Of a stretch of DNA of 64,000 nt, positions 32,627-32,680 are shown piece after piece. The DNA comes from Gammaproteobacteria bacterium. Its GTDB lineage: Bacteria > Pseudomonadota > Gammaproteobacteria > JACQPQ01. The notes under the pieces are model-generated. The model ran no database searches and was not told the origin of the DNA. It saw nothing but the letters and a program-made list of their open reading frames with translations. Location: the NCBI GenBank assembly GCA_016207405.1, contig JACQPQ010000021.1:4936-68935 (forward strand), read 5' to 3'. A program made the translations under genes and the position numbers. Every line of letters starts with the position of its first letter. Positions within the stretch are counted from its first letter, which is position 1.

Positions 32627-32680
32627 CCTTACCCCTTACCCCTTACCCCTTATCCCTTACCCCTTATCCCTTACCCCTTC
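32627..32680. repeat. (TTACCCC/TTATCCC)x7-8 heptamer array, the reverse complement of (GGGGTAA/GGGATAA)n
   Basis: The sequence is ccttaccccttaccccttaccccttatcccttaccccttatcccttaccccttc. It supplies the C-terminus EGVRDKG and TAA stop of the 390-aa gene and an SD for the next gene. Confidence 0.75.

Follow-up and report, generated by a model that had tools for sequence, protein, structure and literature searches.

The window, by which we mean the whole 64-kb stretch of DNA analysed here, carries on its minus strand a 390-aa ORF (32657..33829) followed by a 104-aa gene of the Pfam family DUF2782 (32303..32617), whose start lies 39 nt past the stop of the ORF. The 390-aa protein belongs to no Pfam family and has a signal-peptide-like N-terminus. 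The source genome is an NCBI MAG (locus-tag prefix HY559_), and look-ups by exact protein sequence for ORFs of the window, namely this protein, SpeA and P0001, gave no match. The junction between the two genes is occupied by a minus-strand array, (GGGRTAA)7.6, at 32622..32680, which reaches from the end of the 390-aa gene to the AGGAG (32629-32625) ahead of the DUF2782 gene and which TRF places at 32627-32679 (period 7, 7.6 copies, 91% matches). Read on the minus strand from 32680 to 32615, the sequence runs gaa ggg gta agg gat aag ggg TAA ... ggtaaggagaaaaacg ATG. The sequence check and TRF bear out the position and the minus-strand reading given for this array in a first-pass annotation, as well as the claim that it supplies the last seven residues and the stop of the 390-aa gene: the protein ends in ...VLEGVRDKG*, of which EGVRDKG and the TAA at 32659-32657 are encoded by the array.

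The orthologous junctions that we compared belong to two sister loci, L001 and L128, and to two more distant ones, L123 and L125. The sole homologue of the 390-aa protein outside the source genome (P0002, 41% identity) is encoded on L001, a Logan contig (SRR22388016) with the same gene order as the window, namely the homologue, a DUF2782 gene and then a convergent ORF. The junction of L001 reads ...ctttaACTGGCGTTCAACGTTCCACGTTCGACGTTAAAAGTTGAttAGGAGAAAAACcATG. It shares with the window the Shine-Dalgarno sequence (SD) and its spacing, AGGAGAAAAAC-N-ATG, and has none of the GGGRTAA units. The first-pass annotation had derived the SD of the DUF2782 gene from a mutated last unit of the array. This origin is contradicted by the junction of L001, where AGGAGAAAAAC-ATG is kept without GGGRTAA units; the SD is thus ancestral and older than the array.

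The L001 junction carries a heptamer array of its own, CGTTCNA in 3.6 copies (1338-1362 of the contig). This array starts at the same point of the protein alignment as the focal array (LEGV in the window, LTGV in L001), and it is likewise translated into a C-terminal tail, GVQRSTFDVKS*. A position-conserved heptamer array with an unrelated unit is the main point that a neutral model does not predict, and it is a single case.

Heptamer arrays of the window

The focal array is one member of a family. A two-unit query, GGGRTAAGGGRTAA, allowed at most one mismatch, has 20 matches in the window against 0.09 expected, a number reached by none of 100 shuffled sequences, and no repeat period other than seven is clearly in excess (for seven, 4 strong runs compared with 0.3 in shuffles). 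We counted eight GGGRTAA arrays in the 64-kb window, with coordinates listed for seven, and their unit numbers are given as 2, 4, 6, 7, 7.6, 4 and 4-5. Among 36 units scored, 12 are GGGGTAA and 6 are GGGATAA, and G occupies positions 1-3 in 31-34 of the 36. The remainder includes degenerate units without TAA, such as GGGGGAA, GGGAGAA, GGGGTGA and AGGTGAA, so that the earlier statement that every unit contains TAA does not hold.

The first array of the window is a two-unit one, GGGGTAAGGGATAA, on the minus strand at 786..799. An aroG-like DAHP synthase gene (PF00793, 2.5e-71) takes its last codons (RGKG) and its TAA from this array; the C-terminus of the protein equals that of E. coli AroF in length, and a REP-like hairpin lies 5 nt past the array. 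A four-unit plus-strand array at 4103..4132 ends tadA, as had been noted, with the tail RGKGEGIRG*; this tail exceeds by about 7 residues the FFRARR(G) end that is usual among the homologues, 71 of 120 of which end in FFxxRR or FFxxRRx. A degenerate seven-unit array lies on the plus strand at 14429..14479 and starts at the last codon and the TGA of an MtoA-like decaheme cytochrome gene. On the minus strand, an array of four to five units (48221..48253) begins right after the TAA of rpsI in the rpsI-coq7 spacer, and a degenerate four-unit array (47578..47608) occupies the coq7-recJ spacer and runs up to the recJ ATG; both had been placed in these spacers by the first reading. The remaining array is a six-unit one inside tsaB, at 12937..12978. 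This array and the one at 786-799 are additions to the family as first listed. The named genes beside the arrays, aroG, tadA, tsaB, rpsI, coq7 and recJ, are housekeeping genes. A separate feature of the coq7-recJ spacer is a perfect 14-bp hairpin at 47597-47628 (-32.6 kcal/mol), which pairs the first units of the array with an upstream inverted copy; the T6 run past this hairpin is on the plus strand only, antisense to coq7 and recJ.

The arrays had been described as concentrated exactly at translational stop/start junctions. Gene junctions are indeed where most of them sit, with seven of the eight at or past gene ends and the single intragenic one, in tsaB, antisense. It is the stop that the arrays follow closely: they overlap a stop codon or lie 0-1 nt from it in six of seven cases, the seventh being 24 nt away. 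The internal array of tsaB falls outside the description, and a start codon or SD adjoins only two of the eight, those ahead of the DUF2782 gene and of recJ, both of which have an SD. The stop codon lies within the array in the aroG-like, tadA and 390-aa genes, and the TGA of the decaheme gene is also part of the first unit of its array. Where an array lies between co-directional genes, its G strand is the sense strand in six of six cases (binomial p = 0.03).

Heptamers with other units are present in the same window. CCACTAA is repeated four times on the sense strand (minus strand, 44824..44856) and provides the TAA of an RluC-like ORF (44838-44836). This array stops 1 nt short of the ATG of an HAD gene (44822), where no SD is visible, and it is neither G4-capable nor SD-like. 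Two plus-strand arrays of AGTGCGG (3544-3571 and 3637-3660) lie in the guaA-tadA spacer around a REP-like doublet. The AGTGCGG arrays and the doublet (3548-3680) are free of stops on the plus strand, and ORF calls consequently extend tadA by about 44 codons to a GTG at 3548; the true start of tadA is probably the ATG of MQKALTLAQ.

Gains and losses among relatives

The tsaB gene (12657-13385) is on the minus strand and its array has the G strand on the plus strand. TRF resolves the six units into a 21-nt block present twice. The strand that is translated is the stop-free, C-rich one, which gives HYPLSLTPYPLSLT, a stretch of 14 residues. As it is a 21-nt block that was duplicated, the reading frame is kept. 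Alignments to YeaZ/TsaB structures span residues 5-240 and have a 14-residue gap exactly at the array. The insertion is absent from P0243, which at 57% identity is the closest TsaB homologue in 1.8 billion representatives, and likewise from four more homologues. L128, a 19.5 kb sister contig with syntenic tsaB-nadK-recN, has no heptamer array of at least 3 full copies detectable by TRF.

The array behind the decaheme gene had been credited with providing its TGA. The TGA does lie in the first unit of the array, but it is a native stop: the protein ends in ...HPSGARLMR*, as long as the ...HPSGAGQTR* of a homologue, which places the TGA at the same protein position. Within a 14-nt super-unit, the array repeats the AGGTGAA with which the gene itself ends, and past the array lies a REP-like hairpin. 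This arrangement indicates that the gene end was copied into the array and not the reverse. The mtoA-mtoB gap is 147 nt in the window, array and REP-like hairpin included, compared with 3 nt and no array in the distant L125, the locus of this homologue. In the surrounding cluster (13451-17401), the MtoA-like decaheme cytochrome is accompanied by an MtrB/PioB porin and a NapC/NirT (CymA-like) cytochrome; together they make up the gene set of a module for extracellular electron transfer or iron oxidation.

Searches with Coq7 and TadA returned no close relatives, with top identities of 60-66%. In the more distant L123 (Logan SRR14219488, gammaproteobacterial, Coq7 52% identical), GGGGTAAGGAGTAAGGAGTAAGGGGTT overlaps the stop of the gene upstream of coq7 and is followed by GCCTCAC x3. 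Arrays of this kind thus recur in other lineages at other junctions. The GCCTCAC units, three to four in number (3266-3293 of L123), come directly after the GGGGTAA/GGAGTAA array and are called as an N-terminal extension of Coq7 (240 aa, compared with about 212). Taken together, these comparisons show that the arrays come and go in evolution.

These relatives bear on the possibility that the arrays are intercistronic translation modules, in which stops in all frames and sites for the 3' end of 16S rRNA would pass ribosomes on to the next gene. The resemblance of the G-runs to an SD, which the first reading had pointed out, is supported in that the pairing energy of UAAGGGG with the canonical anti-SD is -6.9 kcal/mol, within the top 0.9% of 7-mers; UAAGGAG reaches -7.8 kcal/mol (top 1% of 7-mers), both values assuming the canonical 16S 3' end for the host. 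The arrays ahead of the DUF2782 gene and of recJ run up to a start codon, neither a terminator nor a promoter is predicted at the 390-aa/DUF2782 junction, the window arrays are biased to the sense strand, and GGGGTAAGGAGTAAGGAGTAAGGGGTT lies over a stop codon in the unrelated lineage of L123. A role in translation has also been proposed for TAACTGA repeats (PMC4679880). The focal SD, however, is older than its array, and relatives manage with spacers of 3 to 14 nt and no array. Moreover, five of the seven sense arrays lie 15-190 nt from the next start or behind a REP hairpin, one array is inside tsaB, and the other junction heptamers do not pair with the anti-SD. We therefore consider translation modules very unlikely, and that terminating ribosomes or 30S subunits would be held on the array and handed to the next start is to be doubted just as strongly.

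Lability over evolution raises the matter of variation in unit number. Two Logan assemblies from other sequencing runs match the window over 6.2 kb and 3.4 kb, being 100% identical to 44527-50688, with three arrays, and to 47192-50612, with two. No unit-number variation was seen between these independent consensus assemblies over the three and two arrays. Their agreement also rules out an assembly artefact as the source of the arrays. Contingency loci, in which changes in unit number would switch or remodel products by phase variation, are an extremely improbable explanation. Some pathogens do use heptanucleotide repeats for phase variation, and the gain or loss of a single unit would change the C-terminal tails or put tsaB out of frame. 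A frameshift in the essential tsaB would, however, be lethal; the flanking genes are housekeeping genes and not surface or virulence genes, the arrays are at 3' ends and not in promoters or 5' coding regions, and the consensus assemblies from two sequencing runs are identical to the window. Rehm et al. rejected phase variation for their own class of heptamers (PMC4692102).

Reading frames and strand placement

The unit itself accounts for the donated stops. GGGRTAA contains TAA, and seven shares no factor with three, so that three units put a stop in all three frames, while the complementary C-rich strand has none. Stop donation is thus automatic for a 7-nt unit that bears TAA; by the same frame logic, a sense array cannot lie inside an ORF but only at its end, which leaves the antisense orientation for internal arrays. 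The window fits, with four ORFs that end in arrays and one internal array, which is antisense. The same was found in 133 listed arrays from other genomes, of which 95 are intergenic and 12 terminate an ORF of at least 100 aa; the other 26 lie inside ORFs and are antisense, with no sense array among them. The donated stops and C-terminal tails look like passive by-products.

These other genomes come from a cross-phylum sample of at least 119 contigs with three perfect GGGRTAA units, drawn from a collection of species-representative genomes, in which ORFs were called by a crude rule of our own (at least 100 aa, longest first). Among the matches listed, the hosts are Cyanobacteria, Bacteroidota, Verrucomicrobiota, Acidobacteriota, Nitrospirota, Planctomycetota, Proteobacteria, Firmicutes and one archaeon. 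The closer ORF is on the 5' side of the G strand in 61 of the 77 listed arrays (p = 2e-7). For sense arrays 3' of a gene, the median distance to the stop is 20 nt among the matches listed, with 15 of 59 overlapping it and 35 of 59 within 25 nt; for antisense arrays 3' of a gene, the median is 114 nt and only 8 of 61 are within 25 nt (Fisher p = 1e-7 for the within-25-nt contrast). Seeding only from TAA stops is rejected as the cause of this polarity, since GGGAATC has no stop and yet the same polarity (PMC4692102).

Between co-directional genes, 15 arrays among the matches listed are sense and 20 are antisense. Neither strand is preferred there, which differs from the six of six sense arrays in the window (Fisher p = 0.02). 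The sense bias between co-directional genes is thus specific to the lineage of the window, and the sample is small. It may point to arrays seeded from stop-plus-SD sequences or to selection acting on the RNA.

Strand also matters for the proposal that the arrays are G-quadruplex (G4) elements in mRNA or DNA that would tune neighbouring cistrons. A G4 just after a stop could have a protective effect on the 3' end, cause RNA polymerase or ribosomes to pause, or hide a nearby SD. Six of the seven sense-strand arrays contain at least four tracts of three or more G, and the intergenic arrays of the window all have the G strand as sense. With G4 energies included, ViennaRNA predicts -25.1 kcal/mol for the sense RNA of the array at 32627, compared with -1.2 without them, and G4s are likewise predicted at 4103 (-15.1 vs -1.8), 14429 (-9.3 vs 0) and 48221 (-5.4 vs 0 kcal/mol). 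G4s of related repeats have been obtained in vitro, and most of these repeats are transcribed, although that published class has no known function either (PMC4692102). On the other hand, the array at 786 has only two units, the one at 47578 is part of a hairpin (-32.6 kcal/mol) that would out-compete a quadruplex, and the junction heptamers CCACTAA, AGTGCGG and CGTTCNA are incapable of forming one. The arrays are not conserved in relatives and lack a sense bias across genomes (15 vs 20 among the matches listed). On balance, a G4 function appears unlikely.

We consider it probable that the arrays are G-rich heptamer repeats generated by slippage and kept where they are tolerated. Slippage during replication, by 7-nt units or by blocks of 14 and 21 nt, would make and resize the arrays, and tolerance would act as the filter by which they persist only where they are harmless. 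One tolerated site would be directly 3' of genes, with the G strand coding, and at times into the last dispensable codons; an ORF that enters an array would end within about 7 codons and, as three units close all frames, the loss of the native stop would cost nothing. The other would be an in-frame surface loop, when the stop-free C-rich strand is translated. Array anatomy, frame logic, lineage-specific insertions and placement polarity are direct observations. The presence in the same window of junction heptamers without G4 or SD potential (CCACTAA, AGTGCGG) also fits slippage and tolerance.

Several findings run against slippage and tolerance. The six-of-six sense bias in the window is not predicted by pure tolerance, the 5'-side polarity goes beyond what slippage alone would give, two lineages with only 41% identity in the flanking protein both have a heptamer array at the focal junction, and there is no difference in unit number between two independent assemblies. 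A reading as selected intercistronic mRNA elements, which would combine an all-frame stop, 16S-complementary sites and a switchable G4 and would tune the next cistron, stays alive because of the window sense bias and the position-conserved array of L001, and we regard it as distinctly unlikely. Selection would then act on a 7-nt-periodic array at a junction and not on its sequence, a proposition to which we assign the same low probability and which would explain the unrelated unit at the orthologous junction of L001. If the SD-like or G4 properties were functional, the arrays would represent a simple, tunable control element for operon junctions; nothing that we found requires it.

Described heptamer repeats and other elements of the window

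G-rich heptameric repeats have been described in Xanthomonas (GGGAATC) and Nostoc (GGGGA(C/T)T) by Rehm 2015 (PMC4692102). They are scattered genome-wide, over-represented in non-coding DNA, commonest between aligned ORFs and rarer on the coding strand inside ORFs, with four units favoured; in both genera an ORF adjoins the G strand at its 5' end. They are mostly transcribed, form G4s in vitro (CD spectroscopy, K+ dependence), differ in length and sequence between related species and have no link to phase-variable genes, and no function was found for the class (PMC4692102). The GGGRTAA arrays resemble this class in having a 7-nt tandem unit with a run of three to four G, in being mostly non-coding and avoiding the coding strand inside ORFs, in consisting of 2 to tens of units scattered beside housekeeping genes, in favouring spacers of co-directional ORFs, in differing in length and sequence among relatives, and in the same 5'-side ORF polarity. 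They differ from GGGAATC in that the unit has a stop and a match to the SD consensus (TAAGGRG); GGGRTAA closes all frames and replaces native stops, which GGGAATC cannot do. The host here is an uncultured groundwater gammaproteobacterium and not Xanthomonas or Nostoc, and the G4s, formed in vitro by the repeats of Rehm 2015, are for GGGRTAA a thermodynamic prediction.

A second described system is that of the TAACTGA direct repeats of marine Beggiatoaceae, cyanobacteria and Bacteroidetes, mostly intergenic and in 2-6 copies (MacGregor 2015, PMC4679880). Forward TAACTGA has stops in all frames, 13-14 sets overlap the end of the upstream ORF, 10-11 reverse sets lie inside ORFs, and the sets mostly end 1 nt ahead of a start codon without an RBS; this is the class for which a translation role has been put forward (PMC4679880). 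GGGRTAA behaves similarly in that forward arrays are found only at ORF ends and reverse ones inside ORFs. However, the units of the window are GGGRTAA, CCACTAA and AGTGCGG; TAACTGA is not G-rich and has no G4 potential, and the GGGRTAA arrays mostly hug the stop codon, with two of eight adjoining a start. The CCACTAA array (44824-44856) is closer to the TAACTGA pattern than the GGGRTAA arrays are.

The STRR heptamers of cyanobacteria are intergenic, phylogenetically sporadic simple repeats. Among the long SSRs of prokaryotes, which have units of 5-11 nt and are attributed to polymerase slippage, heptamers are the commonest, as Mrazek 2007 is relayed in PMC4679880 and PMC4692102. The long SSR and STRR classes are statistical or fingerprinting categories with no defined unit, which do not address stop-codon and SD properties. 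A literature search for the GGGGTAA unit returned no relevant report. The GGGRTAA arrays are therefore a new unit within a kind of G-rich heptamer repeat that is already described, and add to the units known in bacteria. With them, the polarity reported for Xanthomonas and Nostoc extends to another unit at at least 119 loci in many phyla, which points to a general cause. Such arrays also matter for annotation, as they rewrite last codons and stops, lengthen ORF predictions and put peptide repeats into essential proteins such as TsaB.

A REP-like element made up of GTAG and then a hairpin (GTAGGGTGGACAAAGCGAGCGGTCCACC) occupies four places in the window, one of them as a doublet: 753-780 on the minus strand, and 3573-3627, 14485-14521 and 42701-42728 on the plus strand. 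Three of the four sites are 0-5 nt from a heptamer array (p ~0.01 by a rough chance estimate). The C strand of GGGGTAA contains TTAC, a target tetranucleotide of IS200/IS605-type transposases, so that the heptamer arrays might serve as landing sites for REPs. In a metagenome scan for the element, its 21-nt core was found in three unrelated high-GC contigs only. The arrays themselves are not REP/BIME elements: they are direct repeats without a palindrome or a GTAG-type head, and the REP-like element is separate. We also rejected a mobile element that carries the arrays, as there are no shared flanks, and a telomere-like or reverse-transcriptase-templated addition, for which there is no supporting feature.

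An Rfam scan of the window identified three tRNAs only. An AT-rich tandem repeat of a different kind, with a 34-nt unit in 2.7 copies and 96% matches, is intergenic at 28607-28699.
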